The notes: generated by a model from the letters alone, not told the origin. 64,000 nt of DNA from Candidatus Tayloriibacteriota bacterium (GCA_016188455.1 JACPHR010000018.1:5079-69078); one strand, 5' to 3'. Positions 1,109-51,135 are shown, counted from the stretch's first letter. Made by a program: numbers and translations.

Positions 1109-1282
1109 AATCCCGTTAGTCCCGCTTAGAAGTAAGAACTTCTAACGGGATTTGGAGGATACAGTCGTGAGGGACTTGTCCCGTTAGAAAATTAACCAAA
1201 CAATATATTACAACTTTCTGGCCAATCGTCACAAATACTTAAGTTATGTTAAATTTACAAAATTTAATTTTCTGACGGGATG
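1109..1282. repeat. Family-D palindromic element (composite copy), right end abutting ATG of the next gene
   Basis: aatcccgttag...ttagaag / cttctaacgggatt inverted ends. A third copy sits at 1178-1191, and tttctgacgggATG lies at 1270-1282. Confidence 0.4.
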
Positions 1283-2023
1283 AAAAAACCAAAAGTCATT
1301 GTCGCACTGCCCGCCTACAACGCGGCGGCGACCCTTGAAAAAACTGTCGCTGACGTGCCGATGGAGTATGTTTCGGAATTTATTCTGGTTGATGACGTGA
1401 GCAAGGATGAGACATTTTCGGTTGCCAAAAGGCTGAAGTCAAAAATTTCAAAACCGTTTACCATTTACCAGCACGACCAAAATCTTGGCTACGGCGGTAA
1501 TCAAAAAACTTGCTATACTCTCGCGCTCAAGCGCGGCGCCGACATCGTGGTCATGCTCCACCCCGATTACCAATATGACCCTAAGCTTATAAAATATTTC
1601 GTTGAATTTATCCGCGACGGCTATTTTGACGTCGTGCTCGGTTCTCGGGTGCGCAGTCGGAAGGAAACCCTCGCCGGAGGCATGCCGCCGTACAAATATA
1701 TAGCCAATCGTTTGCTCACTTTATGGTACAACATGGTGAGCGGTTACAACTTGTCGGAATGGCATACCGGCATGCGGGCCTATTCAAGAAAGGCGCTTGA
1801 GACGATAGAGTTTGAAAAATTTTCCGACGACTTCGTTTTTGACACGCAAATGCTGTTCGCCATTGTCGGACATTCTTTCCGCGTCGGCGATATCCCGGTG
1901 CCGTGCCGCTATTTCAAAGAGGCCTCTTCCATCAATCTTCGCCGGAGCATTTGCTACGGCCTAGCCGGAGTCTGGGAATCTTTCAAGCACCTCGCCCGCC
2001 GGATTTTTAAGAGAGAAGTTTAG
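1280..2023 (+). CDS. Family 2 glycosyltransferase (Dpm1/polyprenyl-phosphate sugar synthase-like)
   Basis: KVIVALPAYNAAATLEKTV...LVDDVSKDET GT2 signature; about 247 aa soluble GT-A. Confidence 0.7.
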   Translation: MKKPKVIVALPAYNAAATLEKTVADVPMEYVSEFILVDDVSKDETFSVAKRLKSKISKPFTIYQHDQNLGYGGNQKTCYTLALKRGADIVVMLHPDYQYDPKLIKYFVEFIRDGYFDVVLGSRVRSRKETLAGGMPPYKYIANRLLTLWYNMVSGYNLSEWHTGMRAYSRKALETIEFEKFSDDFVFDTQMLFAIVGHSFRVGDIPVPCRYFKEASSINLRRSICYGLAGVWESFKHLARRIFKREV

Positions 2024-2858
2024 TTTTTTCAAGCACCGGTTTCCACTCGGTTTTCAAATAGTCCACCAGCGCCTTTTGCCACGGGCGCATCAGATTTATT
2101 TTTGAAGTCAAAGCTTCATTGGCCACTCGTTTGGCCGGCAATTTAAAATGGCTTGAGCCAACGGGGATGACCGGCACTTTCTGTTTTAGAGTTTCAACGA
2201 TGAGTTTTGCCACGTCACAGCGCGACCCGCGCCCCTTGCCCGCGAGGTGATAAAGACCCCGCGCGTCTTTAGCGATCAGTTTTTTCAGAGCGCCGACCAA
2301 ATCTTTGGCATAGGTGGGCGAGCCCCAGCAATCGTCCAGAGCTTTGATTGCCGGTTTCTGGAACTGGGCGATGATTTTTGCCACGAACTTTTTGTCTTTT
2401 TTCGGCCCGCCGCCGAACATCCAGCAGGCGCGGGCGATAATATAATCCTTGAGCAGGCTTTGGATGACCAGTTCGCCTAAATATTTTGAACGGCCGTAGT
2501 GATTTTGCGGCCGGCCGGGATCGCTTTCCCGATAGAGACCTTTTTTCAGGCCGTCAAAAATGCCCGCCGTGGAGACATAAACCAGTTTGGCGCCGACCGC
2601 TCGGGCGGCGAGTGCCACATTATAAGTGCCGACGCTGTTTACGAGATAGGCTTGAGCCGGATTTTTTTCGCAGTAATCAAGGTCGGTGAGCGCCGCCAGA
2701 TGGATAATGGTTTTTGAGCGGTGGTTTTTGACGGCACTGAGCACCGCTTGGCCGTCGGTCACGTCAAGCTCGGCTCTGTTAAATTTTTTGCCGAAATCAA
2801 TATAAGAGCCGACCATGCCGTCGCCGCCTATGGTTAGGATTTGGGAAAGCGTCTTCAT
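2007..2858 (-). CDS. rmlD: dTDP-4-dehydrorhamnose reductase
   Basis: RmlD-like spacing of GxxGxxG (ILTIGGDGMVGS), YGRSK catalytic motif, STAGIFDG. Adjacent to rmlA/rmlB. Confidence 0.75.
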   Translation of the reverse strand: MKTLSQILTIGGDGMVGSYIDFGKKFNRAELDVTDGQAVLSAVKNHRSKTIIHLAALTDLDYCEKNPAQAYLVNSVGTYNVALAARAVGAKLVYVSTAGIFDGLKKGLYRESDPGRPQNHYGRSKYLGELVIQSLLKDYIIARACWMFGGGPKKDKKFVAKIIAQFQKPAIKALDDCWGSPTYAKDLVGALKKLIAKDARGLYHLAGKGRGSRCDVAKLIVETLKQKVPVIPVGSSHFKLPAKRVANEALTSKINLMRPWQKALVDYLKTEWKPVLEKTKLLS

Positions 2859-3595
2859 GATTTCGGGGCTCTTTGGGCGATGGTGTTGCTGGCCTGAAGC
2901 AGGGAATCAAACATGCCGACGTCAAACCAGAAGCCGGAAACGAATGAGAAACCGAGTTTGCCGCGCTTGAGGTACTCATTATTGGTGTCGGTGACTTCCA
3001 GTTCGCCTCGAGCGGAAGGTTTCAGTTTTTTAATATAAGAAAAGACTTTGGAATCGTATAAATAAAAACCGGTCTGGGCGTATTCGGACTTTGGTTTTTT
3101 CGGTTTTTCTTCTATGGCGAGGAGCTTTTTGCCGCTTTTGTCAAAGACCGCCACGCCGAACCGTTCCGGGTCGGGCACTTTTTTGAAAAACACCATGGCG
3201 CCGGTTTTAAATTCCGAGACGGCTTTGGAAAAGTTATCCTCAAAAATGTTGTCGCCTAAAATCACCGCGACGTTGTTTCGGTCGGCGAAATCTTCGGCAT
3301 ACAGCAGCGCGTCGGAAATGCCGCCGTTATTTTTGTCTTGGAGAGCGTAAGATAGTTTGACGCCGAATTCCTTGCCTGAGCCCAAGAAATTCATAAAGTG
3401 GCCGGCATGCTCCCGACCGCAAACAATCATGATTTCGGTAAGCCCGGAGCGTTTGAGAGTTTCTATGCCGTAAAGAATCATCGGTTTGTCGTAAACCGGC
3501 AAGAGGTGCTTATTGGTGATTTTGGTGAGCGGGTGGAGGCGCGTGCCAAGACCTCCAGCTAGTATTACGCCCTTCATGTTTGATTTATTCGCCAT
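2855..3595 (-). CDS. rmlA: Glucose-1-phosphate thymidylyltransferase
   Basis: MKGVILAGGLGTRLHPLT...LLPVYDKPMI typical RmlA N-terminus. The longer ORF (to 3673) overlaps rmlB; start taken at an internal ATG (3595, or possibly 3577). Confidence 0.8.
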   Translation of the reverse strand: MANKSNMKGVILAGGLGTRLHPLTKITNKHLLPVYDKPMILYGIETLKRSGLTEIMIVCGREHAGHFMNFLGSGKEFGVKLSYALQDKNNGGISDALLYAEDFADRNNVAVILGDNIFEDNFSKAVSEFKTGAMVFFKKVPDPERFGVAVFDKSGKKLLAIEEKPKKPKSEYAQTGFYLYDSKVFSYIKKLKPSARGELEVTDTNNEYLKRGKLGFSFVSGFWFDVGMFDSLLQASNTIAQRAPKS

Positions 3596-3627
3596 ATTTT
3601 TTCTATTTTCTACCTGCCCGACTACAT

Positions 3628-4701
3628 TCAGGCGGGTTTTCCATTTTCTTTTTTTATTTGATGCGCTTTCCATAAATCAATGTGGGGGTTGAAGACGCCG
3701 GTTCGCTTGCGCACCCGGTCTATCCATTTTGGGTTGTCTATATACCACTGCACGGTATCGCTAAAAGCCTTTTCAAAGGAATGGGTCGGCTGCCAGCCAA
3801 GTTCCGCGCGGATTCTTTTCGGATCAATAGCGTAACGGCGGTCGTGCCCTGGCCGGTCTCCCACATATTCTAGCCAACTTTCGTCGCGATTAAAATATTT
3901 TAAAATTCGGCGCGCGATGCCGGTGTTGTCCAGCTCGTTGTTTGCCCCAATATGATACACGCCGCCCGCAGCGCCTTGAAGCAGGCAAAGCTCCAAGGCG
4001 TGGCAGTGGTCCAATACGTAAATCCAATCTCTCACATGCTTGCCGTCGCCGTAAAGCGGCAGTTTTTTGTTTTCAAGCATCCGCGTGACGAAGAAGGGAA
4101 TAATTTTTTCCGGATACTGGTACGGGCCGTAGTTGTTTGAACAGTGGGTGACGACTACGGGCACTTGCCAGGTTGAATGGTAGGCTCGGCAGAGGAGGTC
4201 GCCTCCCGCCTTGGTGGCGGCGTAGGGCACGTTCGGCGCGAAGAGCGTGTATTCGTTAAACTTCTCTTTGGAATCAAGCGACAAGCTTCCATGCACTTCA
4301 TCAGTTGAAATTTGAACGTATTTTATAACCGTGGGGCTTGCTTTAACCGCTTCCAAAATGTTAAAAACCCCCTGAATGTTTGTTTTGATGAACTCAAGCG
4401 CGCCGACATGAATGCTTCGGTCCACGTGGGTTTCGGCGGCGCAGTTTAGGCAATAATCCGGCTGATGTTTTTTGAACGCGGCCGAAATGGTTTTTTCCTC
4501 CGCGATGTCTCCTTTGACGAAAGCATAGCGTTTGTCTCCCGCGATGTCTCCGAGATTGTCAAGGTTGCCGGAGTAGGTGAGCTTGTCCAGATTGACGATT
4601 TTGACGCGCGGGTATTTCCCCAGAATATAATGGATAAAATTGGAGCCGATGAAACCCGCGCCGCCGCAGACGAGGATGGTTTTGTCGTTAAAGGTTGCCA
4701 T
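3628..4701 (-). CDS. rmlB: dTDP-glucose 4,6-dehydratase
   Basis: ILVCGGAGFIGSNF, ...STDEVHG..., YAATKAGGD motifs of RmlB. Confidence 0.85.
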   Translation of the reverse strand: MATFNDKTILVCGGAGFIGSNFIHYILGKYPRVKIVNLDKLTYSGNLDNLGDIAGDKRYAFVKGDIAEEKTISAAFKKHQPDYCLNCAAETHVDRSIHVGALEFIKTNIQGVFNILEAVKASPTVIKYVQISTDEVHGSLSLDSKEKFNEYTLFAPNVPYAATKAGGDLLCRAYHSTWQVPVVVTHCSNNYGPYQYPEKIIPFFVTRMLENKKLPLYGDGKHVRDWIYVLDHCHALELCLLQGAAGGVYHIGANNELDNTGIARRILKYFNRDESWLEYVGDRPGHDRRYAIDPKRIRAELGWQPTHSFEKAFSDTVQWYIDNPKWIDRVRKRTGVFNPHIDLWKAHQIKKENGKPA

Positions 4702-4771
4702 AGGATAGCTATTATACAGGGCTTCATCATGTCATTTTCAATCTCAAAAATCAAGAAAGCCTTGTTTGAAA

Positions 4772-5066
4772 TGAATTACGAAACTCCCTGAGGCACCTCT
4801 CCGAAAGGGGTGAGACGTGCAGGGAGCACGTCGCAAGACCTTGAGTACTCCGTCTTCGGAGAGCGAAAGGTGTACAGTTCCTGTAGGGAATAGGAGCGGC
4901 CGGCGCCGCAACTTCAGCCCAGCACCATTTTTACCGAATAAATGACGATTGACTTGTTTGGGTTCTAAGAGTAAAAACTTTTTTAATGAATTACAGATTG
5001 CTCTGTGAAAATGGTGCTGGGCGTACCCTTCCCCACAGGTGCCGAGGGAAGGAGTTTCATAATTCA
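4772..5066. mobile_element. Family-A palindromic MITE-like element, long variant with a nested family-C element (4918-5021)
   Basis: Ends tgaattacgaaactcc / ggagtttcataattca. The inner inverted repeat is cccagcaccattttt...aaaatggtgctggg; further nested stems are present. Confidence 0.5.
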
Positions 5067-5109
5067 AATAGCATTGCGCTAGGGGATTTTTTTATCTATC
5101 ATTACCGCT

Positions 5110-9815: not shown

Positions 9816-9917
9816 GTTCTTCGTAGGATTTATATTGAAGATTATACCTTACATCATAAATAAAATATCTTCAAATAAGTGTGCTAGACGAGCACATCGG
9901 TGACAGTCCTATTCTTA

Positions 9918-9990
9918 CCTTGAATTACGAAACTCGGTTTCCGCGAAGAGAACTTCATCCCGCGCGCCTTGTCCGGACTGAGGCAAGCCC
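9918..9990. mobile_element. Truncated family-A element (left half only)
   Basis: ccttgaattacgaaactcggtttccgcgaagagaacttcatcccgcgcgccttgtccggac is the reverse complement of the right half of the nadE-internal copy. No matching right end is present. Confidence 0.4.
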
Positions 9991-10091
9991 CCGCACCAAT
10001 TTCACCAAAGATGCGCGAGGGGTTTTGACGAGAGAGGCGGGGATGGACACGCGACAATGCGCGGTATTATGACCCACAGAGAGGGCAGTTC

Positions 10092-10529
10092 TTGAGTCAA
10101 GACCCGCTCCATCTCGCTCTAGGGAATGCACAGCAAGTTAAACAACTGACGGGGCAGGAACAGCAAGCGTATTTGGCAGAGCCACAGAATCTAAATAGCC
10201 ACTCTTACGGAAAAAATAATCCGCTAAAGTTTAGTGATCCAAGCGGATTGTTCTGGTGGTACGGGTTCTACGATTGGACAGGCTACGAGGGTATTCGGGG
10301 GAGTGGCAATGAAAGCAGGAGAAGTGTTTGGTGGCCACAGCCGGGCATTAAATGCCATCCAGTGGTAATTGGTGTAATTGGTGTCAGTAATTGTAATTGG
10401 TGTCATAATTGGTGTCAGATAATTGGTGTCATAATTGGTGTCAGTAATTGGTGTCTAATTGGTGTCATAATTGGTGTCAGGTACCTTTTAGTAATTGGTG
10501 TCAGTAGTAATTGGTGTAATTGGTGGTAA
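10092..10529 (+). pseudogene. Orphan C-terminal fragment of an RHS/YD-repeat polymorphic toxin (NPxxxxDPxGL tip), running into a tandem-repeat array
   Basis: ...QNLNSHSYGKNNPLKFSDPSGL is the RHS core-end motif. No upstream RHS core and no recognisable toxin domain; the ORF continues into 11-bp repeats. Confidence 0.45.
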
Positions 10530-10548
10530 TTGGTGTCAGGTACCTTTT
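10372..10548. repeat. Tandem array of 11-12-bp units (AATTGGTGTCA[T/G]) ending in GGTGTCAGGTACCTTTT (two copies)
   Basis: About 12 direct units read directly. Terminal 17-mers at 10473-10489 and 10532-10548. Confidence 0.7.
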
Positions 10549-10579
10549 ATTTTCCAACATTTCATGATACACTCTCATC

Positions 10580-11260
10580 ATGGGACGAGCACCACGAGTT
10601 GATGTCGGCGGCGAGGTCTATCATATTATAAATCGTGCCAACGGCCGGCAGACAATCTTCCACACAAAAGAGGAGTATTTGCATTTTGAGCAACTTCTCA
10701 CTGAAGCTAAAGAACTGAATAGCATGCGTATTCTTGCCTATATCCTTATGTCAAACCACTGGCACTTGGTACTTCATCCTCACCGTGACGGCGATCTTTC
10801 TGTGTTCATGCAATGGCTTACCTTAACTCACACCCAGCAATATCACTCAAGAACAAAAACGATTGGCTACGGCCATCTCTATCAGGGACGATACAAGTCA
10901 TTTCTCGTCGAAAAAGACAACCATCTTCTCCAGCTTATCCGCTATGTGGAGCGCAATGCTTTTCGTGCTAAACTTGTTAAACAGGCGGAGAATTGGCGAT
11001 GGGGAAGTGCATACCGGAGAACCCAGGGTGCACCGCAAGCAAAAGCATTACTGAGTGATACCATTATTGAGCTTCCCAAAGATTATCTTGAGTGGTTGAA
11101 CGAAAAAGAAGATGCGGGCGCCCTTGCTATTATTCGCCAGTCAGTAAACAAAGGAACCCCATTGGGAGCAGTAAAATGGGTCAAGCGGACAGTTGATAAA
11201 TTTGATTTACTTTTAACCACGCGCTTGCGTGGAAGGCCGAAAGATGAAAAAGGTACCTGA
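10580..11260 (+). CDS. REP-associated tyrosine transposase (RAYT; IS200/IS605-like HUH Y1 transposase)
   Basis: YHIINRANGRQTIF...ILAYILMSNHWHLVL (HuH motif) ...YQGRYKS (catalytic Tyr region). About 226 aa, typical RAYT length. Confidence 0.75.
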   Translation: MGRAPRVDVGGEVYHIINRANGRQTIFHTKEEYLHFEQLLTEAKELNSMRILAYILMSNHWHLVLHPHRDGDLSVFMQWLTLTHTQQYHSRTKTIGYGHLYQGRYKSFLVEKDNHLLQLIRYVERNAFRAKLVKQAENWRWGSAYRRTQGAPQAKALLSDTIIELPKDYLEWLNEKEDAGALAIIRQSVNKGTPLGAVKWVKRTVDKFDLLLTTRLRGRPKDEKGT

Positions 11261-11480
11261 CACCAATTCCTCAATTCCTGACACCAATTCCCCAATTCCA
11301 ATTCCTGACACCAATTCCCATTGGGAGCAGTAAAATGGGTCAAGCGGACAGTTGATAAATTTGATTTACTTTTAACCACGCGCTTGCGTGGAAGGCCGAA
11401 AGATGAAAAAGGTACCTGACACCAATTCCTCTGACACCAATTCCTGACACCAATTCCCTGACACCAATTCCACAGGTTAC
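11247..11480. repeat. Inverted copy of the 11-bp repeat array (TGACACCAATT units) with AAAAGGTACCTGACACC ends, including a 106-bp tandem duplication of the RAYT 3' end
   Basis: 11161-11266 is repeated at 11320-11425 (period 159 bp). The unit orientation is the reverse complement of the upstream array. Confidence 0.65.
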
Positions 11481-17284: not shown

Positions 17285-17393
17285 TGAATTACGAAACTGG
17301 CGTGCTTCAAGAAACCCCTCCCGCTTGCCCCCCGTAAGGCCTTGAGCGCGCGGGAGGGGTTTCTTTTCGCACTAAGCAAGCCCTCGTAATTCA
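17285..17393. mobile_element. Family-A palindromic MITE-like element
   Basis: tgaattacgaaactgg...ccctcgtaattca ends; inner stem gaaacccctcccgc/gcgggaggggtttc. Fills the intercistronic gap between two minus-strand genes. Confidence 0.55.
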
Positions 17394-19127: not shown

Positions 19128-19225
19128 GAAGTTCGCTTTCGGCGCAGAGAAACCCCTCCCGCGCGCCTTGGCTGGACTCTAGGCAAGCGGGAGGGGTTTC
19201 TTGAAGCGCGAGCTTCGCCATTCAC
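19128..19225. mobile_element. Diverged family-A element
   Basis: gtgaatggcgaagttcgc...gcgagcttcgccattcac ends (12/16 identity with the canonical TGAATTACGAAACTCG). Same internal gaaacccctcccgcgcgccttg...caagcgggaggggtttc core. Confidence 0.45.
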
Positions 19226-20985: not shown

Positions 20986-21060
20986 TGGCGCGTGTTACCA
21001 TAAAGGCTCCTAGATGAACATACGAATATACGAATTATACGAACAATACGAATGGCTACG
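20986..21060. repeat. AT-rich TACGAA-motif repeat region
   Basis: acatacgaatatacgaattatacgaacaatacgaatggctacgaat; related to the copies at 59341, 59855 and 60705. Confidence 0.4.
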
Positions 21061-21170
21061 AATCCCGTTAGAAGTCCAAAGATTGTATGTATATAGCAAG
21101 AGCATACATATTTGAAAAACATCGGATGTATTGCAGTACAGGATTTAGCAAGACTTCTGACGGGACGAAT
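21061..21170. repeat. Family-D palindromic element
   Basis: aatcccgttagaagtcc ... gacttctgacgggacgaat inverted ends. Confidence 0.45.
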
Positions 21171-24967: not shown

Positions 24968-25822
24968 CTAGAACTGCCGCGGCGGGTGAAAAGTTTTTCT
25001 GGCCGATTCCAGTTTTTGGAGATTGCCGATATCTATGAAATAACCGGTTGTCGGGTAGGCATACAAGGCCTTTTTTGAAGCGAGCAACTTCGGGTAAATG
25101 TCCGCGCCAAAGTCGCTTTTCAGCGACTCTGGGATGAAATCAAAAATTTCCGGTTCCAAAACGTAAAATGAGCCGTTGACGAAGACGGGCTCGCCCCGCG
25201 TGTCTTTCACGGTCGGACGCTCTATAAATTCTAAAATCCTGTTCGTATCGTCAAATTTTATCATGCTCTTTGGGTCTGGCCCCTCTCTTTTGTAGACGTT
25301 CAAGGTGGCGAAGGCCTTTGTTTTTTTGTGGCCCTCAATCATTTTAGTGACATCAAGCTCTCTTACAATATCGGCGTATGTCACGATGAAACTTTCCTTG
25401 ATATAGGACTTCCGCAGTCGGCGCATTTCTTCGTTGCTTCGCTCGTTTGCTCCCGCAGTGTATATGCATACACTTTGGTCGCAAGCCTCGCTCGCGCCTC
25501 GAACTGCATCCGACTGCGTAGGTCCTATGATGAATTTTTTAGCGAGGGTTATGGCGCCGGCGGTGCCGAGGGGATTTTTCGGGTCTTCGTGCGTATAGGC
25601 GATGCGCACACCGAATTTGGAACCATCACCAAAGTAAGAAACTACTTTCTCCGGCAAATGACAAAGGGCGATGATAAAATCTTTGACGCCGTGGCTTTTT
25701 AATAAATCAACCGTGTGGAAAAGAATGGGTTTGCCCCCGACCTCCAGCATCGGTTTTGGGGTAGTATCGGTGAAAGGCCGCAGTCTTTCTCCTTTTCCTC
25801 CTGCGACAATTATGGCTTTCAT
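24968..25822 (-). CDS. Sugar-phosphate nucleotidyltransferase (HddC / mannose-1-P guanylyltransferase-like) carrying an in-frame 40-codon repeat-element insertion
   Basis: MKAIIVAGGKGERLRPFT...GGKPIL N-terminus. The segment IGPTQSDAVRGASEACDQSVCIYTAGANERSNEEMRRLRKSY is encoded by the family-B element (25406-25525). Confidence 0.7.
   Translation of the reverse strand: MKAIIVAGGKGERLRPFTDTTPKPMLEVGGKPILFHTVDLLKSHGVKDFIIALCHLPEKVVSYFGDGSKFGVRIAYTHEDPKNPLGTAGAITLAKKFIIGPTQSDAVRGASEACDQSVCIYTAGANERSNEEMRRLRKSYIKESFIVTYADIVRELDVTKMIEGHKKTKAFATLNVYKREGPDPKSMIKFDDTNRILEFIERPTVKDTRGEPVFVNGSFYVLEPEIFDFIPESLKSDFGADIYPKLLASKKALYAYPTTGYFIDIGNLQKLESARKTFHPPRQF
25406..25525. mobile_element. Family-B palindromic element inserted in frame within a coding sequence
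   Basis: 120 bp. Ends ggacttccgcagtcgg / ccgactgcgtaggtcc. Reverse-complement match to the intergenic copy at 39740-39862. Confidence 0.6.
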
Positions 25823-25939
25823 CCCGTTAGAAATAGGACGCGGACAGGCATCCTCCGCATCCCGAATTATTGCGAGTAAGATTCAACTTTGATATTGAAG
25901 TCATGTATTTTTTTTCGCGTCCGCGATTTCTAACGGGAC
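25821..25939. repeat. Family-D palindromic element, intercistronic, abutting an ATG
   Basis: atcccgttagaaat ... atttctaacgggac. The left end overlaps the start codon of the 24968-25822 gene. Confidence 0.5.
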
Positions 25940-29594: not shown

Positions 29595-29602
29595 TAACAT
29601 GA

Positions 29603-29710
29603 CCTTGAATTACAAAACTCATTGCTCCAAGAAACCTCTCCCGCTTGCCTAACTCCGGACAAGGCGCGCGGGAGGGGTTTCTCTCCGCGGATAATGAGTT
29701 TCGTAATTCA
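29603..29710. mobile_element. Family-A palindromic MITE-like element
   Basis: ccttgaattacaaaactcat...atgagtttcgtaattca perfect ends. Core ccggacaaggcgcgcgggaggggtttc. Ends 7 nt before the next ATG. Confidence 0.55.
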
Positions 29711-29717
29711 CAGTAAT

Positions 29718-31627: not shown

Positions 31628-31673
31628 TCCTTCCGCCTCTCAGGATACTCTGGATACTCTGAAAATCTCCTTG

Positions 31674-31709
31674 TTACCTAACTCAAGCGTACGCTTGAGT
31701 TAGGTAACA
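31674..31709. repeat. Perfect 36-bp palindrome (copy 1 of 2)
   Basis: gttacctaactcaagcgtacgcttgagttaggtaac. Identical 41-mer context at 43032-43072. Confidence 0.6.
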
Positions 31710-39729: not shown

Positions 39730-39739
39730 TTTGGGTATA

Positions 39740-39862
39740 GGACTTACGCAATCGGATGCAGTTCGAGGCGCGAGCTCGGCTTGCGACCAAGCTGTAGTTA
39801 GATGCTACTGCGCGGGAGCAAACGAGCGAAGCAACGAAGAAATGCGCCGATTGCGTAAGTCC
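39740..39862. mobile_element. Family-B palindromic element (intergenic copy)
   Basis: Perfect 16-bp ends ggacttacgcaatcgg / ccgattgcgtaagtcc. Interior matches the copy inside the nucleotidyltransferase gene. Confidence 0.6.
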
Positions 39863-39974
39863 TAAAGAAATAATCACCACATGGTCGCATATTCATCGGC
39901 AAAAATCAATCAACTACCGCGCAGCAAACTGACTAGGTATACCGAGTCAGACTTGCTGGCAGTGCGGTAGTTGA

Positions 39975-40076
39975 CCCAGCACCATTTTCACCGATATGCC
40001 GCTTGTGATATATGAAAATCTTTCCCCAATCATGTATAACAGTTAGAAACGAGCATTCTGTAAAAATGGTGCTGGG
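39975..40076. repeat. Family-C palindromic element
   Basis: cccagcaccattttcacc...ctgtaaaaatggtgctggg; same ends as 4918-5021. Confidence 0.5.
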
Positions 40077-40160
40077 TTGATTATCCGCAAGCCACCTCAA
40101 AAATTTCCGGTGGGCGGATAATAAAAAATTGAAAAATCCAAACCGTTTGCTATGATTGCT

Positions 40161-40267
40161 TTGAATTACGAAACTCGTTTTTTGCGGAGAGAAACCTCTC
40201 CCGCGCGCCTTGTCCGGACGGGAGGCAAGCGGGAGGGGTTTCTCGAAGCAAGAGTTTCGTAATTCAA
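40161..40267. mobile_element. Family-A palindromic MITE-like element
   Basis: ttgaattacgaaactc...gagtttcgtaattcaa perfect 16-bp ends. Core ccttgtccggacgggaggcaagcgggaggggtttc. Lies 27 nt upstream of the nadE start. Confidence 0.55.
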
Positions 40268-40293: not shown

Positions 40294-42105
40294 ATGCGTA
40301 TAGCCATACTACAACTCAATTACACAGTCGGAGATTTTGAAGGAAACGCGGCCAAGATTCTTCAAGGCTATCGTCGCGCCCGCAAAGAAGGGGCGGAGGT
40401 AGTGCTCGGGACGGAGCTCTCGCTCTTCGGCTACCCGCCGCTTGACCTGTTGGAACGCGCTGACTATATTGCGAAACAGTACGATGAATTAAAAAAATTG
40501 ACCGCCAAAATCGGCGGCGTCCCTCTGGTCATAGGCGTTGCCGAGAAAAACGAAAACAAAAAAGGCAAACCGCTTTTTAACAGCGCGGTTGTTATTCACA
40601 ACGGGCGGATTGTTCACCGCGCGCGCAAGACACTGCTTCCCACCTATGATGTCTTTGACGAGTCGCGTTATTTTGAAGCCAACGACGGGCCGGTTCGGCC
40701 TTGGGTATACAAAGGCAAAAAAATCCTTATACTGCTCTGTGAAGATATTTGGAACGGGTCCGAGAACGCCGACAATAAACTCTACCATACCTTGAATTAC
40801 GAAACTGGCGCTTCGAGAACTTCTTCCCGCCCGCCTGCCAGCGCCGGAGCCGCAGGCTATGGCGGGCAGGCTTGCTTCCCGTCCGGACAAGGCGCGCGGG
40901 ATGAAGTTCTCTTAGCGGAAACCGAGTTTCGTAATTCAAGGTACCACAAGGACCCGCTTATAGAAGCCAAGGCGCTTTCTCCCGATTTGGTATTGGTCAT
41001 CAACGGCTCGCCCTATTTTTGGGGCAAGGGAGACGGGCGGCTGTCGCTTGTCTCGGGCATCGGCCGGCGCTTGCGCTGCCCGATATTTTACGCCAATCAA
41101 GTGGGCGGCAATACGGACCTGGTTTTTGACGGGCGAAGTTTCGCGGTGGACGGAAATGGCAGATGCATCGGAGCCGCCAAACCGTTCGCCGAGGATGTCT
41201 TGATGGTTGATACCAAAACAGCCAAAGCGGTTGCATATTCCTCCGATGCTGGCAAACCGGAAGAACTTTACAACGCGCTTGTCTGCGGGGTCCGTGACTA
41301 CTTGAGGAAAATCAAAAACACCAAAGGAGTGGTGGTGGGGCTTTCGGGCGGCGTTGATTCGGCGCTGGTCGCTACCATCGCCGTGGACGCGCTCGGTGCG
41401 GACAAAGTGCGCGGCATTGCTATGCCCTCGACCTTCTCCTCCGATGAGAGTGTCATTGACGCCAAGACCCTGGCGGAAAATCTTGGCATTCAATTTGACG
41501 TTGTTCCCATTAAAAAAGCCTACGGCTCTTTCGGAGAAATACTCGGGCCGGTCATTGGCTGGGAAAAGCCGCTTGCCTTGGCCGAAGAGAATGTGCAAGC
41601 GCGCGTTCGGGGCCTGATTTTGATGGCCATTTCAAATCGCGAGGGCAATATTGTGCTCACCACCGGAAACAAATCGGAGATTGCGGTGGGCTACTGCACG
41701 CTCTACGGGGACATGGCCGGGGGCTACGCCGTGATTTCGGACATTCCCAAGACGGTTGTCTACAGCTTGGCGGAATACCGGAACGCTAAAGCCAAGAAAG
41801 ACATCATTCCGCGCCGCAGCCTTGAAAAGGCGCCGTCCGCCGAGCTTCGGCCAAACCAGAAGGACCAGGACACCTTGCCGCCTTATGACGTGCTTGACGA
41901 TATTTTAGAGCAGTATGTTGAAGAGCAGAAAGGTCTAGCTGATATTGTTAAATCGGGGCACAATCCAAAAACGGTGGAGTGGGTAATCCAGACGATTGAC
42001 AGGAACGAGTATAAACGTCGGCAGATGCCGCCCGGGCCGAAGGTCACGGGCAAAGCCTTCGGCAGCGGCCGGCGGATTCCCATCGCGGCCAAGTTTATCC
42101 TGTAG
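40294..42105 (+). CDS. nadE: Glutamine-dependent NAD+ synthetase carrying an in-frame repeat-element insertion
   Basis: N-terminal CN-hydrolase domain (...ILILLCEDIW...) plus C-terminal NAD synthetase (VVGLSGGVDSALVA, ...SDE..., ...GYCTLYGDM...). Start refined to MRIAILQL. Confidence 0.8.
   Translation: MRIAILQLNYTVGDFEGNAAKILQGYRRARKEGAEVVLGTELSLFGYPPLDLLERADYIAKQYDELKKLTAKIGGVPLVIGVAEKNENKKGKPLFNSAVVIHNGRIVHRARKTLLPTYDVFDESRYFEANDGPVRPWVYKGKKILILLCEDIWNGSENADNKLYHTLNYETGASRTSSRPPASAGAAGYGGQACFPSGQGARDEVLLAETEFRNSRYHKDPLIEAKALSPDLVLVINGSPYFWGKGDGRLSLVSGIGRRLRCPIFYANQVGGNTDLVFDGRSFAVDGNGRCIGAAKPFAEDVLMVDTKTAKAVAYSSDAGKPEELYNALVCGVRDYLRKIKNTKGVVVGLSGGVDSALVATIAVDALGADKVRGIAMPSTFSSDESVIDAKTLAENLGIQFDVVPIKKAYGSFGEILGPVIGWEKPLALAEENVQARVRGLILMAISNREGNIVLTTGNKSEIAVGYCTLYGDMAGGYAVISDIPKTVVYSLAEYRNAKAKKDIIPRRSLEKAPSAELRPNQKDQDTLPPYDVLDDILEQYVEEQKGLADIVKSGHNPKTVEWVIQTIDRNEYKRRQMPPGPKVTGKAFGSGRRIPIAAKFIL
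40789..40940. mobile_element. Family-A palindromic element inserted in frame within nadE
   Basis: Perfect 18-bp ends ccttgaattacgaaactc / gagtttcgtaattcaagg. Encodes ...TLNYETGASRTSSRPPASAGAAGYGGQACFPSGQGARDEVLLAETEFRNSRY... without interrupting the frame. Confidence 0.6.
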
Positions 42106-42976: not shown

Positions 42977-43031
42977 CTTATTATCTGCCCGCAGAATATC
43001 CAGCACTTGCTTTATCTTAATCTTACCTAAT

Positions 43032-43067
43032 GTTACCTAACTCAAGCGTACGCTTGAGTTAGGTAAC
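43032..43067. repeat. Perfect 36-bp palindrome (copy 2 of 2)
   Basis: gttacctaactcaagcgtacgcttgagttaggtaac; identical to 31674-31709. Confidence 0.6.
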
Positions 43068-43218
43068 ATAGGGCAATCGTTATTCGGTAAAAATGGCGTT
43101 GAGTCAACCTACCTAGCGGTGTGATTTTTCTCTAGTGAATGGGGTTATAGAAGCCGATTGAAAAGGCCGCCAGTGTTTGCTATGATTACGCGCACTGTCG
43201 CATTGAGTCACATAATAA

Positions 43219-45456: not shown

Positions 45457-45471
45457 ATCAAAGTTTCTTAA

Positions 45472-45691
45472 TATTGAATTACAAAACTCTTGCCAAGAGA
45501 TTCCCTTTCCACAAGCCTCGGCTCCGGACAAGGCGCGTGGAAGCGGAAAAGGTCTCTTTCCGCGAACAATCCGCATCTTTTAAGGGTATCACCGATACCC
45601 AGAAATGGCTTTTAGCCGCTATCGCGGCTAAAAGCCATTGTTGAACATTTTATGTAGCGGGAGGTGACTGAAAAAGAATTTCGTAACTTAG
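45472..45691. mobile_element. Family-A-related composite element (diverged ends, extra internal hairpins) flanked by a 10-bp direct repeat AGTTTCTTAA
   Basis: ttgaattacaaaactcttgcc...agaatttcgtaactta. Core ccggacaaggcgcgtggaagcgg. Internal 15-bp perfect stem atggcttttagccgc/gcggctaaaagccat. Direct repeats at 45462-45471 and 45692-45701. Confidence 0.45.
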
Positions 45692-46395: not shown

Positions 46396-47354
46396 TTTTT
46401 GCTCAATATTAGCGCCAGTATTTTCGGGTGTTTTCTGGCGAATCTGACGGAGATTCTTTTCAGCTTTTCTCTGAAGGGCACGGTCAGCGCGCCGGTTTTG
46501 CCGACGGGCGTATTTTTGAGGCGGATAGGCGAGCGGTCAAGCGTATTATACCAGCTTTTGCTTCCCGCCTCGCTTTTAATGTATAGGGCGTCGCGCGGGT
46601 CCAGCAAATCCAAATAAGGCATAATCATTTTGGTGGCCATGAGCGACACCTCGTTTTCTTTTTTTGCTTCGCGGGTGAAAAGGGAATCGGTGCCGTAGCG
46701 GTGATAGTAGAAGCTGTTCGGCATGACCGCGAATTTGGCGCCGGCGGCCAGGCATTTTAGAGTGAAGCCCCAAGCCTCGTGCAGGCCCTTGCCGTATTCC
46801 CAAACGCCGCCGACGGTTTGCCAAAGGGCTTTGGTGAACATATAATTTCCGCCGGGGCCGGGATTGATGTCGCCCGCCAGAAAATCGGCAAAAGTTAAAA
46901 CACCCGGGCGGCAAAGCCACTTGTGGGTAATTTTTTTCTTGCCGTTTTTTTCTTCTCGAAAATAGCGGTACTCGGCGAAGCCTGCCATGTCGGCCTTTTC
47001 GGCAATCATGCAGGTTTTTAGTTTGGGCACGCTTGCCGGCGCCAAGACATCGTCGGCGTAGAGGTTAAAAATAATTGGATTTTTGGCGGCGGCGTAAGCG
47101 ATATTTCGGGCCGCCGGACAGCCTCTGTTTTCCTTACTTACGATGATTTCAATGAAGGGGTATTTTTTTCGGAGCTCTTCAAGTATCAGAAGGGTATCGT
47201 CGGTCGAGCCGTCATCCACGACGATAAGCTCGTCTCCGGTCCCGAAATTGCCGTTCATGATGGACTCCACCGATTCCGCGACAGTGCCGCCAGCGTTGTA
47301 CGCTGGCATGCAAAAGCTTATGCGGTCTTCGTTTTTTATTTTAGGACCGATCAT
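46392..47354 (-). CDS. Family 2 glycosyltransferase
   Basis: ISFCMPAYNAGGTV...LIVVDDGSTDDT. Confidence 0.7.
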   Translation of the reverse strand: MIGPKIKNEDRISFCMPAYNAGGTVAESVESIMNGNFGTGDELIVVDDGSTDDTLLILEELRKKYPFIEIIVSKENRGCPAARNIAYAAAKNPIIFNLYADDVLAPASVPKLKTCMIAEKADMAGFAEYRYFREEKNGKKKITHKWLCRPGVLTFADFLAGDINPGPGGNYMFTKALWQTVGGVWEYGKGLHEAWGFTLKCLAAGAKFAVMPNSFYYHRYGTDSLFTREAKKENEVSLMATKMIMPYLDLLDPRDALYIKSEAGSKSWYNTLDRSPIRLKNTPVGKTGALTVPFREKLKRISVRFARKHPKILALILSKN

Positions 47355-48219
47355 TGTTGGTGTTCATGAGTACGTCTTCGAGCTTCTTTTTAGGAAAGAC
47401 GTCAAGCAGGCTGCCGGGCGTGCAGTTTACGATACTCGCGCCTCTCTTGTCGCAATACCGTTTTAGCTTCTTGTATATTCGCCACAGGTTGACTTGCGAT
47501 TGCAGGACGAATTCAAAATCCTTGTTCCACTCGTTATAGTTGGCTTGGGTCAAAGCGCTCTTCTTCTCGTCGTAAAAATGCCGAGTTTCGCCGTAGTGGA
47601 GAATCCAGTCGTGGTCGGCGCCCACGAGACAGAGGTTTTTCGCTCCCATATAGAGCGCGATATAGAGGGCGGTGTGGGGACTGGTTTGGATGAGCAGCAG
47701 TTGTTTGGCGAGGTCAATGGTCATGTTCTCGCTCGGTTCTTTCGTGCCGGTGAGGTAGTAATAGACCCGCTGTTTTTTGAAGAGCCGATATTTATCAACG
47801 ACCACTTTGTCCGTCAGGCCGATGAAAACTTTCTGGCCCTCGGGCATGTGTTTTTCAGCGTCCTCAAACCACGCTTTATACTGCTCGTAACTGATGGGGG
47901 AATGTGAGGCGGTGAAAATGTGATACTCGGGCTTGATGACGTTGAAATCCGGATGCAGGAAAAAATTGCTTACGCTTATACAAAACTCGCCCTCAAGCTT
48001 TTTCAGGTCCATCTTGTTGATGGACGGGCCGGTGGCCAGAATAAAACAACGTTTGCCCGGGGCAGAATTTTTGAGCAGTTTGTTCGGTCTTAAAACCTCT
48101 CGGTTTTTGTAATAAAACCGCCATTGCTTGAACTTATTCCGCCATGTTTGAAGCCAGCCGCTGGCTTTTGTCAAACTCGGCCCCACCAGAGTATTTTGTT
48201 TGAGAGCTTCTTTTATCAT
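47341..48219 (-). CDS. DUF115 (MptE-like / motility-accessory-factor-like) putative glycosyltransferase
   Basis: ...CFILATGPSI... and ...LCLVGADHDW... are DUF115 hallmark motifs. Confidence 0.45.
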   Translation of the reverse strand: MIKEALKQNTLVGPSLTKASGWLQTWRNKFKQWRFYYKNREVLRPNKLLKNSAPGKRCFILATGPSINKMDLKKLEGEFCISVSNFFLHPDFNVIKPEYHIFTASHSPISYEQYKAWFEDAEKHMPEGQKVFIGLTDKVVVDKYRLFKKQRVYYYLTGTKEPSENMTIDLAKQLLLIQTSPHTALYIALYMGAKNLCLVGADHDWILHYGETRHFYDEKKSALTQANYNEWNKDFEFVLQSQVNLWRIYKKLKRYCDKRGASIVNCTPGSLLDVFPKKKLEDVLMNTNNDRS

Positions 48220-48343
48220 CCCGTTAGAGGCAAGTCGCGATCAACCCGCGCTGTGGGTAGTTACTTTTGTTAATAATGATAGGACGGCAACACATAACAG
48301 TTCTAGCTTCTTCTTAAACCGTGACCGCGGCCTCTAACGGGAT
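48218..48343. repeat. Family-D palindromic element, intercistronic, abutting an ATG
   Basis: atcccgttagagg ... cctctaacgggat. The left end overlaps the start codon of 47341-48219, and the right end overlaps the last codons of 48303-49130. Confidence 0.5.
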
Positions 48344-49130
48344 TCATGCCGAAAATATACAGGCCGGTCGCGCCGCTCCACTTTGAATCGTGGCGGAGGG
48401 TCAGCACGTGGCTTTTAATCCAGAGCATAAAGTTTTTTATCGCCTTCTCCTTGCGCCTTAGGCCCATGTCGGAGAGCACGTTGGGCAAGCGGTGGCTAAA
48501 ATCTTTAATGAGTTTAGTACCCTGCGCCCACTCAAAGTCAAAGGTTTTCCAGACGAGTTTCAGGTTGAGAGCCTTTGCCCAGCCCGCAAATTCAATCGGC
48601 GTGAGATAGTGAAGGTCGGCGAGCGTAATGGGAGCGTCAAAAAGAAAACGCAAGGTCTGAAGGATGTAGCCGCGCGGATTGGTCCAGTTGGGACTGGTAA
48701 TGATTATGGAACCTCCCGGGTTTAGATGTTTTTTGAATAATTTGAGGGCGGCCAGCGGTTTATCCATGTGCTCCAATGTGCCGAGCGACATGACAATATC
48801 GTATCGGCCTCGGTGATTTTTTACGTCTTCCGTTCGGTATTCAAGATTGGGCGCCGCGTAAGTTCTGCGGGCTTGCCGGATGCCGTCGCGGCTAAAGTCA
48901 ATGCCCACCACCTTCTTGGCGCCCGAGCGCGCGGCGAGCGCCGCCATGAGCCCGGTGCCGCAGCCGACGTCAAGCACGCTCTTGCCTTGCCACTTGACGG
49001 CCTTTCTCACTTCGGCCTCGTCAATCGGCAGGCGAGCCTTTTCCCCGAAGAGCAGTTTCGTGTAGTGCTTTTTCTCACCGCGCCGATAGACCGAATTGTA
49101 GAATGCCGCAAGGTCTTTGTTTTTTCTCAT
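48303..49130 (-). CDS. Class I SAM-dependent methyltransferase
   Basis: VLDVGCGTGLMAALAA (motif I) ...VVGIDFS.... Confidence 0.65.
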   Translation of the reverse strand: MRKNKDLAAFYNSVYRRGEKKHYTKLLFGEKARLPIDEAEVRKAVKWQGKSVLDVGCGTGLMAALAARSGAKKVVGIDFSRDGIRQARRTYAAPNLEYRTEDVKNHRGRYDIVMSLGTLEHMDKPLAALKLFKKHLNPGGSIIITSPNWTNPRGYILQTLRFLFDAPITLADLHYLTPIEFAGWAKALNLKLVWKTFDFEWAQGTKLIKDFSHRLPNVLSDMGLRRKEKAIKNFMLWIKSHVLTLRHDSKWSGATGLYIFGMNPVRGRGHGLRRS

Positions 49131-49135
49131 AGATT

Positions 49136-51031
49136 TTACAGACCGTATTTTTTTAATCTTTTAAGGGCCGTAATAAAACCCTCGCCGTTGTAGTGGTGGC
49201 CCATCCAGATTTCCGGTGCCATGGTCACGTTTGTTCTAAGAATTTCCGGCATCAATATTTTCCACGGGACATCACCGTCGCCCACTTGAATACCCTCGCC
49301 GTCGGTGCCGATGCCGTCCGAGAGGTGAATATGTTTGACCAACGGTTTGAGGGTTTTGAAGAATGCTAACGGATCTTTCTTCGCAAAGGTGCAATACAGT
49401 TGAGCGTGGCTGGTGTCGTAACAAAGCGAGTAGCCGTATTTTTTGGCGAATAGATAAATTTCTTCAGCGTCGGTGAATGTGTTTGAGAACCAGGCGCCGC
49501 CTTTGTACCACGGGAAGGGCGGCAAGTTCTCTAAAAGAAGCTCAATGCCGGTTTGGTCCAGCTTTTTGAGGCCGTGGCCGAGCCGCGTATACATTTTTGC
49601 CCGTTCTTTTTTAGTGGCGAATTGGTTATAGCTCATGCCGCCGGTGTGAAGCGCCACTTTCACTTTTGGCGGCGTTTTCCCGAAATATTTTCTAATCTCA
49701 CGGACTTTCTTAAGGAAGTCGTTTATGTGTTTGATTGAAGCCCTTACCGTTTCCTTGTCGTCGGAGCAGAAATCCAAAAGTTTGTCGTCCCATAACTCAG
49801 GCGCGTGGGCCACGAGCTCAAGCTCTGGATGATTTTTGAAAACCATCGGGTGGCCGAGGTCGTGGGAGCTGAAATGAAATTCCACAAATGAAGGCTTGAG
49901 TCCCGAAATCATGTTTTCAAAATCGTGCGGCCGGACAATGAGTCCCCATTTTCGTTTTGAGCTGAAAGCGCGGTCATGCTTTTTCTTACCGAGGTCTTCT
50001 TCCGTGAAGTAGCCGTCTTTGGCGATGTCTCTTCTGGCTTTTTGCCCCACCAGTTCGTACAGCTTCTGCGGCGAAAGGCCTTTGGCCGGACTCTTGGCCG
50101 CTATCATCTCGCGGGTCAGGGTTTCTCCGGCTTTAACGGCCTTGGCCGCCACCAGGCTTTTGCCGAGAATTTTCCGATTGATGAATTCTCCCATGGTCAT
50201 GAATTTTTTGTCGCTTTGCAGCGCTTCCTCAATTCGGCGGATGTCGCGGACGAGCCTTATGATGCCGGCTGGCTCGAGCGAGATGGCATGGTCCGGTCCG
50301 GTCATTGTCCGGTCAAGGGTGATGTGGCGCTCAATCACTTTGGCCCCCAGGGGGACGGCCGCCATTGAAATGGCCAGTCCGAGCTCATGTCCTGAATAAC
50401 CGACGACACAATCAAACTTTGCCTTAAGCACCTCTATGAACTTCAGGTTAGCGTCTTTGGCGGCGGCGGGGTAGGCACTGTTGCAGTGAAGGAGAATGTA
50501 CTCCGCGCCGAGCTTGTTAAGATGCGACACAGTCGCTTCAATTTCTTCAAGCGAGGACATGCCGGTTGAAAGGATCATGGGCTTTTTCTTTGAAGCGACG
50601 TATTCGATAAGCTCAAAATTGACTAAGTCGGCCGAGGCGAGTTTGTAGGCGGGCACGTCGAGCTTTTCCAAAATGTCCACGCTCGCGATGTCCCACGGCG
50701 TGCAGAGAAACATAATGCCTTTCTCTTTGGCGTAGCGGGCGAGCATCTTGAAATTTTCATCCGACAGGGTGGCTTCGCGGATGAGGGAGAGGATGTACTG
50801 CGAAGCGATGTCTTCATGTTTCGTATTGTTAAAGGCCTTATCGGTGTAGAGGGTTTTGAAATCGCGCATCTGGAATTTCACCGCGTCGGCTTTTGCCTCA
50901 ACGGCCAGGTCAATCAGCTTTTTGGCGAGCTCAATCCGGCCGTTATGATTGATGCCCGCTTCGGCAATGATAAAAGCCGGGTGTCCGTCACCGATTAGCC
51001 GGTTGCCGATTTTGATTGTTTTGTTTTTCAT
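49136..51031 (-). CDS. NeuB-family sialic/nonulosonic acid synthase fused to a C-terminal xylose-isomerase-like TIM-barrel domain
   Basis: N-terminal about 340 aa: ...FIIAEAGINHNG..., ...CTPWD..., SAF domain. C-terminal about 290 aa: TIM-barrel sugar-phosphate isomerase/epimerase-like. Confidence 0.65.
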   Translation of the reverse strand: MKNKTIKIGNRLIGDGHPAFIIAEAGINHNGRIELAKKLIDLAVEAKADAVKFQMRDFKTLYTDKAFNNTKHEDIASQYILSLIREATLSDENFKMLARYAKEKGIMFLCTPWDIASVDILEKLDVPAYKLASADLVNFELIEYVASKKKPMILSTGMSSLEEIEATVSHLNKLGAEYILLHCNSAYPAAAKDANLKFIEVLKAKFDCVVGYSGHELGLAISMAAVPLGAKVIERHITLDRTMTGPDHAISLEPAGIIRLVRDIRRIEEALQSDKKFMTMGEFINRKILGKSLVAAKAVKAGETLTREMIAAKSPAKGLSPQKLYELVGQKARRDIAKDGYFTEEDLGKKKHDRAFSSKRKWGLIVRPHDFENMISGLKPSFVEFHFSSHDLGHPMVFKNHPELELVAHAPELWDDKLLDFCSDDKETVRASIKHINDFLKKVREIRKYFGKTPPKVKVALHTGGMSYNQFATKKERAKMYTRLGHGLKKLDQTGIELLLENLPPFPWYKGGAWFSNTFTDAEEIYLFAKKYGYSLCYDTSHAQLYCTFAKKDPLAFFKTLKPLVKHIHLSDGIGTDGEGIQVGDGDVPWKILMPEILRTNVTMAPEIWMGHHYNGEGFITALKRLKKYGL

Positions 51032-51135
51032 CCCGTTAGAAGTTTAGTAACTAATGGAAAGTGATAGTATATTAAAAGTAGCTATTCGTCCAACCCGTTT
51101 TCAAAAAAGATACCGGCTGCGCTTCTAACGGGATT
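51030..51135. repeat. Family-D palindromic element, intercistronic, abutting an ATG
   Basis: atcccgttagaag ... cttctaacgggat. The left end overlaps the start codon of the neuB-like gene. Confidence 0.5.

Follow-up and report, generated by a model that had tools for sequence, protein, structure and literature searches.

Family D, a probable miniature inverted-repeat transposable element that sits on start codons and rebuilds them in bacteria of the Candidate Phyla Radiation

A stretch of 64,000 nucleotides of Candidatus Tayloriibacteriota DNA (GCA_016188455.1, JACPHR010000018.1:5079-69078; hereafter the window) carries five copies of a small palindromic element, here called family D, most of which stand flush with the start codon of a gene. 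The source is a metagenome-assembled genome (MAG) of Candidatus Taylorbacteria, within the Candidate Phyla Radiation (CPR) or Patescibacteria, and the window is a glycan-biosynthesis region. The NadE protein of the window matches a protein labelled 'Candidatus Taylorbacteria bacterium' at 100% identity; exact-sequence look-ups of proteins from window genes gave no record. Family D is probably a non-autonomous DNA transposon of the MITE type (for miniature inverted-repeat transposable element), 100-125 bp in length, in which insertion at a start codon is coupled with rebuilding of the ATG and, as we infer, with translational reinitiation on the gene. It has the small size, inverted ends, 4-bp target duplication, multiple copies and between-species polymorphism that are the marks of a MITE.

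Two scans placed the window copies in a wider context. Species genomes of GTDB were searched with the pattern TCCCGTYAGA-N75-105-TCTRACGGGA, and metagenomes with the 5' end of the subfamily of window copy 3, TCCCGTTAGARATMGCGGAC, alone. The termini TCCCGTTAGA...TCTAACGGGA were found in at least 120 genome loci and at least 120 metagenome loci, the latter with 96 full copies. Among the genome matches listed, 137 copies from about 110 genomes had enough flanking sequence to be analysed, and these constitute the genome sample.

The insertion site is defined by a short duplication. In the genome sample TG follows exactly one end of the element in 123 of 137 copies, both ends in 3 and neither end in 11. 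A perfect 4-bp direct repeat flanks 88 of the 123 TG-oriented copies, in the arrangements ATGAA/TGAA (47 copies), ATGGA/TGGA (16) and ATGAG/TGAG (15) among others, and 71 of 96 metagenome copies have a perfect duplication; at least 14 distinct 4-mers are represented in the two samples. Five copies have GTGRR on the far side and A+TGRR on the gene side. Copies of this kind show that the element itself supplies the gene-proximal A, as its final base, and that 4 bp are duplicated. In the target logo of the reconstructed empty site, information is present only at A, T, G, R and R. The product of insertion is then A/TGRR -> ATGRR-element-TGRR, wherein the element's last A and the duplicated TG form the new ATG. 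A first-pass annotation of the window had assigned the AT of the start codon to the end of the element; the A does belong to it, whereas the TG is the first half of the target duplication. Repeats of other sequence also occur (TAAA, TTTA, TTGA, CTTA, CTGA, CGAA, and CGCG for a family-D copy lying within another), so ATG is not a strict requirement for the cut.

The regenerated ATG is in most cases the start of a gene. It opens an open reading frame (ORF) of at least 100 aa, or one that runs off the locus, in 107 of 123 genome copies and a long ORF in 80 of 93 metagenome copies. The share of copies on a start codon is about 87-97%. The ORFs opened by regenerated ATGs have a median length of 231 aa; random ATGs have a median of 21 aa, and 16% of them reach 100 aa. 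These figures, together with the perfect duplications, substantiate the target-site specificity for start codons that had been offered as one explanation of the window copies.

Orientation relative to the gene is likewise fixed. A CCT motif beside the 3' end is gene-proximal 51 times and distal 6 times, and in metagenome copies of the copy 3 subfamily TG follows the 3' end in 93 of 96. The interior is never seen flipped: none of the 96 has the reverse arrangement, and the best 40 BLAST-similar pairs are all co-oriented relative to their host genes. This bears directly on the idea that the element is an invertible promoter (inverton), flipped by a recombinase for phase variation of surface-glycan genes. 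Short conserved inverted repeats around an AT-rich interior directly upstream of the window's glycan genes, and -10-like sequences after the internal GGGA of some interiors, would be expected of such a switch. However, the element stands at housekeeping genes elsewhere, it has target duplications, and no recombinase gene was found in the window, which, with the constant orientation, makes an inverton very improbable.

Recent copies are evident within single genomes. In MAG JAMCZC01 (loci L103 and L120) three copies that are 91-96% identical stand at three different genes, with the repeats TGAA, TGAA and TGCG, and L103 contains further family-D copies. Copies in L140 and L143 are 99% identical and their flanks are unrelated; L096 has two copies, 98% identical, about 200 bp apart. 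Tandem copies are present in L014 and L093, and junctions of adjacent copies in L016 and L104. The nested arrangement, family D within family D with the CGCG duplication, is repeated in L150, L218 and L220. A relative, L121 (NadE 71% identical), keeps the window's gene order MptE-like, methyltransferase, NeuB and GT10 (family 10 glycosyltransferase), and no family-D end lies in the syntenic locus; there 2 nt separate the methyltransferase gene from the MptE-like one, and NeuB begins ATGAAAAA. The insertion polymorphism is one between species, window versus L121, rather than one of strain-level alleles.

The spread across taxa is broad. By record title, among the matches listed, at least 90 of 120 genome loci belong to CPR lineages, 30 of them Saccharibacteria and the others Paceibacterota/Parcubacteria groups, Kazan and more; the remaining labels include 16 unclassified, 3 Omnitrophota, 4 Planctomycetota (3 of them Sedimentisphaerales), 4 Gammaproteobacteria and one each of Elusimicrobia, WOR-3 and Desulfobacterales. 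MAG taxonomy is as labelled, and some labels are possibly wrong. The Omnitrophota and Sedimentisphaerales copies have the identical start-codon arrangement. That the 10-bp tips of family D are identical in many CPR classes, Omnitrophota and Planctomycetota points to horizontal movement among these groups; the family D pattern had no match in IMG/VR viral contigs.

The genes that receive the element are unrelated to one another. Among 100 host genes scanned, 136 Pfam families were recognised, and the genes include those for PheT, topoisomerase I, Asp/Lys-tRNA synthetase, ribosomal proteins L9 and L17, adenylate kinase (Adk), ClpP, FtsW and UvrD. A glycan-gene regulon was rejected on account of this diversity.

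The ends of family D are constrained as pairs, and the interiors are far more diverged. Copies are 97-126 bp long, with three longer ones of about 190-310 bp among the loci, and their sole ORF is a non-conserved upstream open reading frame (uORF). The terminal inverted repeats are 13 bp, TCCCGTTAGANNN...NNNTCTAACGGGA, and are intact in 120 of 123 predicted folds. Stem positions 11-13 covary (AT, GC, TA and CG) and are Watson-Crick pairs in 115-119 of 123 copies; at position 14 a C-T mismatch is conserved. P2 (GGNNNN/NNNNCC), another conserved stem, adjoins the 3' strand and is followed by a single T; its partner is near the 5' end in 57 copies and local in 56. P2 shows AT/TA and GC/AT exchanges and pairs well in one register only (74% paired versus 20-46% in non-overlapping registers). 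An internal YGGGA is present at positions 20-40 in about one third of copies, its complement being rare. Compensated tips, CCCCG...CGGGG and GCCCG...CGGGC, were noted in L180 (1508-1619), L218 (5576-5675), L229 (3561-3663) and L058 (110-223); the CCCCG...CGGGG variants are still paired, and a C/G tip rebuilds a GTG rather than an ATG start. In L149, L156 and L176 an unrelated palindromic element (CCTGCCCGCC...GGCAGGCGGG) lies between P2 and the family-D 3' end.

Covariation of the long terminal stem and conservation of P2 are also what a cis-regulatory RNA would show, that is, a structured leader, translational switch or RNase III stem recruited by the host for its function. The fixed orientation and the constraint on the uORF described below would suit such an RNA, and single stem mismatches are G-U-compatible about 12 times on the sense strand and about 6 times on the antisense strand, a weak signal in the same direction. 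The reading is nevertheless unlikely, inasmuch as the host genes have no common function, site-specific 4-bp duplications flank the copies, near-identical copies stand at unrelated genes of one genome and the orthologous sites are empty in L121. Nor is there an Rfam match: with Rfam 15 nothing in the window reached the gathering score, and in evalue mode copies 3 and 4 gave only chance-level hits (E >= 1.6). A mobile element may of course have a regulatory side-effect.

Conserved ends around a variable middle also recall the attC sites that mark gene-cassette boundaries in integrons, which range from 57 to 141 bp. The attC core sites have the consensus GTTRRRY and RYYYAAC, which GTTAGAA/TTCTAAC of family D resemble, and at copy 3 the upstream ORF ends inside the element. 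In family D, however, the order of the core-like motifs is reversed relative to the gene, the stems are perfect, without extrahelical bases, and 4-bp target duplications are carried; the copies are single and scattered ahead of housekeeping genes, and no integrase or cassette array was seen. An attC-like origin therefore has very little to recommend it.

The preferred interpretation, a MITE specialised on start codons, gains from the distribution of stop codons. Read along the gene, the 5' junction is ATG-AAT-CCC-GTT-AGA, in which frame 2 is stopped by TGA and frame 3 by TAG. At the 3' junction, TCTAACGGGATGA, one frame meets a TAA 4 nt ahead of the ATG and another a TGA that overlaps the ATG; the remaining frame would run into the gene as a fusion. 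Of 96 copies in the genome sample, 33 have an interior without stops in the old-ATG frame, versus 22 of 192 other frames (Fisher p = 6e-6). In elements whose length is divisible by 3 the TAA terminates the uORF, and 23 of 44 such copies are open; where an open uORF would fuse to the gene, none of 19 is open. The metagenome sample repeats this pattern, the old-ATG frame being open in 25 of 34 copies versus 3 of 34 and 5 of 34 for the other two, with 1 of 18 open in the fusion case.

The peptides encoded by these frames have only the end-encoded part in common, their interiors are near saturation, and variability by codon position is flat (1.57, 1.64 and 1.54 bits). A conserved small protein in the uORF was rejected in view of this flat profile and of the confinement of shared residues to the ends. 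What the uORF conserves is openness, not a peptide. The upstream features of the old ATG match those of ordinary gene starts, with no Shine-Dalgarno (SD) sequence and frequent -10 boxes, and upstream genes end at the retained ATGA in 15 cases and inside the element in 16. The constraint on the uORF suggests translational reinitiation. A role in translation initiation or mRNA processing had been the alternative proposed in the first-pass annotation, and its translational side is supported in part, though in another sense than was meant there. Since the host genes are unrelated, family D is no host initiation signal, but the stop codons of its ends and its open uORF do look selected for downstream translation.

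SD motifs are scarce in the genomes concerned. An SD-like motif precedes 4 of 53 long ATG ORFs in the window, against 12% of random positions, in agreement with the earlier description of the genome as lacking SD sequences; a -10-like box lies 4-11 nt upstream of the ATG in 17 of 53, against 10% at random. In loci L001-L120 SD-like motifs are found at 13.5%, at or below the random level, and both there and in the long window ORFs the interval 4-11 nt ahead of the ATG shows a roughly threefold enrichment of TANNNT boxes. Together these values suggest that leaderless or coupled translation predominates in these CPR genomes.

A pathway can be proposed from these elements. Insertion would proceed through a 4-bp staggered cut, with a strong preference for A/TGRR at a gene start and in one orientation only, and would yield the locus (A/G)TGRR-element-TGRR, in which the new ATG directly adjoins the untouched coding sequence and the old start codon stays at the distal end, together with its promoter or the context of the upstream gene. 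Incoming frames would be closed by the TGA of the duplication, the TAG of the 5' end and the TAA of the 3' end, and the frame able to fuse to the gene would practically never be open. Ribosomes from the old ATG would translate a meaningless uORF across the element, stop either at the TAA that precedes the new ATG by 4 nt or at the TGA overlapping it, and then reinitiate. Host-gene expression would persist in this way in SD-less, largely leaderless genomes, and the start codon would therefore be a safe harbour. The transposase would have to act in trans, and a staggered cut by an enzyme of the DDE type would fit, because the duplication is fixed at 4 bp. The more general proposition, that family D is a cross-phylum element specialised on start codons as a safe harbour and equipped with a portable uORF/stop-start translation relay, is put forward tentatively, as possible rather than probable.

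The search for the mover covered both the window and the flanks of the other copies. In a Pfam scan of essentially all window ORFs the only candidates were an IS200-like Y1 gene and a PD-(D/E)XK nuclease. The former encodes an IS200-like Y1 (HUH) transposase or RAYT-like protein at 10580-11260 (PF01797, E = 2e-15) within 10365-11470; inverted arrays of a short repeat, AATTGGTGTCA(G) / CTGACACCAATT, unrelated to family D, flank it, and its 3' end is duplicated. A hairpin (...CACACCAAT.../...ATTGGTGTG...) at 1052-1098 is related to these flanking repeats. All-against-all clustering of 1,276 locus ORFs gave no recurrent transposase-like cluster. Pairs of ends 0.26-5 kb apart with matching repeats were all neighbouring small copies, with no autonomous version among them, and unpaired ends were mostly chance matches with 1 mismatch, cuts at locus edges or ends of longer copies.

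The Y1 gene raises the question of whether an HUH/Y1 transposase moves family D as single-strand DNA, as happens in IS200/IS605 palindrome-associated elements and REPIN/RAYT systems, with the repeated 4-mer being a cleavage motif and no target duplication. Conserved hairpin pairing and strictly oriented insertion beside a short target, like the presence of that gene, would agree with this. But both flanking 4-mers change together between sites, even among the 91-96% identical copies, the Y1 gene is bordered by the unrelated AATTGGTGTCA repeats, and the GTAG/CGTC head is absent. Guide-type target recognition was looked for and rejected, no element position covarying with the 4-mer (maximum mutual information 0.13 bit). 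Since the duplications are site-dependent and guide-like covariation is absent, a Y1 mechanism is disfavoured and was judged quite improbable.

Several points weigh against transposition as proposed here. Searches of 1.68 Mb of flanking sequence and of IMG/VR revealed neither a transposase nor a long version with family-D ends. About one quarter of the copies are without a perfect duplication, among them copy 3 and the inner part of copy 1 in the window, and about two thirds have early stops in the uORF, so reinitiation at the ATG is not the whole story. The strict orientation and the start-codon bias are unexplained by a simple symmetric transposase, because the ends are symmetric and the target is non-palindromic; orientation and placement need an asymmetric recognition of A/TGRR, a mark of the gene start or strong selection after insertion, and selection of this kind may contribute to both biases in compact genomes. 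In addition, the search patterns fixed the first 10 bp of each end, and the counts include related copies that are phylogenetically non-independent.

All five copies listed in the first-pass annotation were recovered in the window where it had placed them (Table 1). TCCCGTYAGA, at no more than one mismatch, has 15 matches there, against 5.9 +/- 2.3 in shuffled sequences, none of 100 shuffles reaching 15; 11 of the 15 are exact, and the exact matches pair up 82-104 nt apart. The copies align in their ends only (mean column identity 56%, with every invariant column in the ends). Inverted ends of 13-15 bp and internal hairpins had been described, and folding does give a terminal stem of 13-20 bp in each copy, with z-scores of -2.4 to -5.1. 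The interior had been called variable; the interiors of window copies indeed do not align, but they are not random, since the subfamilies of copies 3 and 4 recur in other phyla. Four copies abut an ATG as annotated (...ACGGGA/TG at ORFs 1280(+), 25822(-), 48219(-) and 51031(-)), and copies 3, 4 and 5 are the three intercistronic ones within minus-strand operons. The annotated starts are credible because the Pfam profiles align from the first residues or close to them: residue 2 of the 25822 ORF aligns to position 1 of the NTP_transferase profile, residue 8 of the 1280 ORF aligns to position 2 of the family 2 glycosyltransferase (GT2) profile, and the NeuB profile begins at residue 39 of the 51031 ORF.

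Table 1. Positions of family-D copies, their parts and their host genes in the window
Feature	Coordinates	Strand	Remarks
Copy 1 (c1), composite, 170 bp	1111-1280	+	base 1280, the last A, begins the ATG of the GT2 gene
Copy 1, outer ends	5' TCCCGTTAGT 1111-1120; 3' TCTGACGGGA 1271-1280	+	
Copy 1, inner termini	3'-type 1141-1150; 5'-type 1179-1188		mini-hairpin 1111-1150
Copy 1, old start and left duplication	ATGAA 1106-1110; TGAA 1107-1110	+	right TGAA 1281-1284
Copy 1, short uORF (ATG AAT CCC GTT AGT CCC GCT TAG)	1106-1129	+	
Copy 2 (c2), 103 bp	21063-21165	.	divergent intergenic region, off start codons
Copy 3 (c3), 117 bp, subfamily AGAAATCGCGGACGC...GTCCGCGTCCTATTTCT	25822-25938	-	
Copy 4 (c4), 124 bp, subfamily AGAGGCCGCGGTCAC...CGCGACTTGCCTCT	48219-48342	-	
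Copy 5 (c5), 103 bp	51031-51133	-	new ATG 51031-51029; old start GTGAA 51138-51134
Host gene of copy 1: family 2 glycosyltransferase	1280-2023	+	
Host gene of copy 3: sugar nucleotidyltransferase	24968-25822	-	
Host gene of copy 4: MptE-like protein	47341-48219	-	
Host gene of copy 5: NeuB + SAF + xylose-isomerase-like TIM barrel fusion	49136-51031	-	

The individual copies differ in detail. At copy 1 a -10-like TATACT (1094-1099) lies 6 nt before the old ATG, a sequence that suggests a leaderless promoter. Copy 5 has a perfect duplication (TGAA at 51137-51134 and 51030-51027) beside the old GTGAA, so that ATG has here taken the place of a GTG start; its predicted empty site is ...ACGCCGCG-TGAA-AAACAAAACAATC.... 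At copy 4, where the new ATG is at 48219-48217 and the old ATGAA at 48347-48343, the duplication is imperfect (TGAA at 48346-48343 versus TGAT at 48218-48215), and the methyltransferase ORF runs through the old ATG into the element as far as a TAG stop (48305-48303). The last base of copy 3 is the A of the NTP-transferase ATG (25822-25820); the copy has no target duplication (ACGG versus TGAA), the upstream HAD-hydrolase ORF terminates at the TAG of its 5' end (25932-25930), and the frame that terminates at its TAA (25829-25827) is stop-free within the element. Copy 2 is flanked by the direct repeat CGAA (21059-21062 and 21166-21169) and lies 52 nt upstream of the ATG of the GT1 (family 1 glycosyltransferase) gene (21218).

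Two features of the flanks were recorded alongside. Immediately to the left of copy 2 is a run of the heptamer ATACGAA(T) (21018-21062), the CGAA duplication being inside its last repeat. The sequence ACTTG recurs directly before the 5' end of duplication-less copies, in the window at 1171-1178 and in the left flanks of L028 and L172/L124.

Family D shares much with the MITEs already known from bacteria, such as Correia/NEMIS of Neisseria, ERIC, RUP and BOX. These too are small and non-coding; their inverted repeats form a long hairpin, the target duplication is short, and many copies lie near genes, with which they are probably co-transcribed. Unlike family D, they mostly have TA or longer duplications and lie in intergenic DNA at varying distances from genes; the orientation of family D to the gene is fixed. 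To our knowledge, no bacterial MITE has been described as landing on and rebuilding a start codon. Rickettsia palindromic elements (RPEs), which are in-frame MITEs, are likewise palindromic and tolerated because the reading frame survives. RPEs, however, become part of the protein, whereas family D stays outside it (fusion frame open in 0/19 and 1/18) and preserves the gene by remaking its ATG.

Among transposon families, piggyBac/IS1380 have, like family D, a 4-bp duplication adjoining ends of the CCC...GGG type, a likeness confined here to these two features; the target of family D is not TTAA, it has an extra T/A before CCC/GGG, and no related transposase was found. The palindrome-associated IS200/IS605 elements and REPIN/RAYT have hairpins and an insertion oriented by a motif of 4-5 nt, but neither target duplication nor terminal inverted repeats, in contrast to the site-varying duplication of family D. 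Coupling by termination and reinitiation is known from junctions that overlap as ATGA or TAANNNNATG and from short uORFs. Family D resembles it in that a stop precedes the start by 4 nt (TAACGGGATG) or shares bases with it (ATGA), and in that only openness is kept; it differs from coupling in place in that the device, whose function we infer, is borne by a mobile element. Start-codon insertion, start regeneration and a conserved read-through frame in a MITE are apparently undescribed. A review of MITEs (PMC10969869) and a survey of 183,232 genomes (PMC11602168) mention neither start codons nor CPR, and the literature gave no description of the family D sequence or of MITEs in CPR/Patescibacteria, although coverage was incomplete and an earlier description is possible.

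CPR bacteria are mostly uncultured and their translation start is poorly known. If the proposed scheme is correct, family D would be a natural reporter of translation start in CPR, its target choice may be coupled to marks of the gene start such as open promoter complexes or initiating ribosomes, and it might serve as a template for tools that insert DNA precisely at starts. Landing on a start and repairing it would add to the harmless niches occupied by introns, inteins and in-frame RPEs, and the open uORF that ends 4 nt before the ATG is a testable prediction of reinitiation in SD-less, leaderless genomes. For annotation, gene callers may choose the old ATG or miss the real start, and upstream genes can gain element-encoded tails, as did the methyltransferase gene beside copy 4. 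More speculatively, because the copies sit flush with intact ORFs, recombination between them could swap promoters or genes without damage to coding sequence, a possibility relevant to the mosaic glycan locus of the window.

The genome is heavily colonised by small palindromic repeats of other kinds. The NTP-transferase gene that hosts copy 3 is interrupted in frame at 25403-25528 by a TA-flanked palindromic element with ends (T)AGGACYTACGCARTCGG, unrelated to family D and with a sister copy at 39738-39864; it adds 42 codons and splits the Pfam domain in two, in a manner resembling RPEs. The NAD synthase (NadE) gene contains, at 40788-40943 and likewise in frame, another TA-flanked element; its ends are CCTTGAATTACGAAACT, it has sister copies at 29599-29717, 40161-40267 and about 9917-10000, and it contains a nested GC-rich palindrome. 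The NadE insertion amounts to about 52 aa between NKLYH and KDPL in a protein of 603 aa; homologues of 557 aa (80% identical) and 550 aa (71% identical) do not have it. The PD-(D/E)XK nuclease gene (PDDEXK_3, E = 3.5e-21; 59426-59881) lies between the Wzm/Wzt ABC-transporter genes of a glycan export operon and looks like a selfish insertion. Hairpins of AGAAACCCCTCCCGC are found at 17302-17372, 19148-19201 and 40190-40243 and are often nested in other elements; perfect palindromes TGTTACCTAACTCAAGCGT/ACGCTTGAGTTAGGTAACA lie at 31672-31709 and 43023-43076, and CCCAGCACCATTTT...AAAATGGTGCTGGG repeats at 4917-5022 and 39974-40077.

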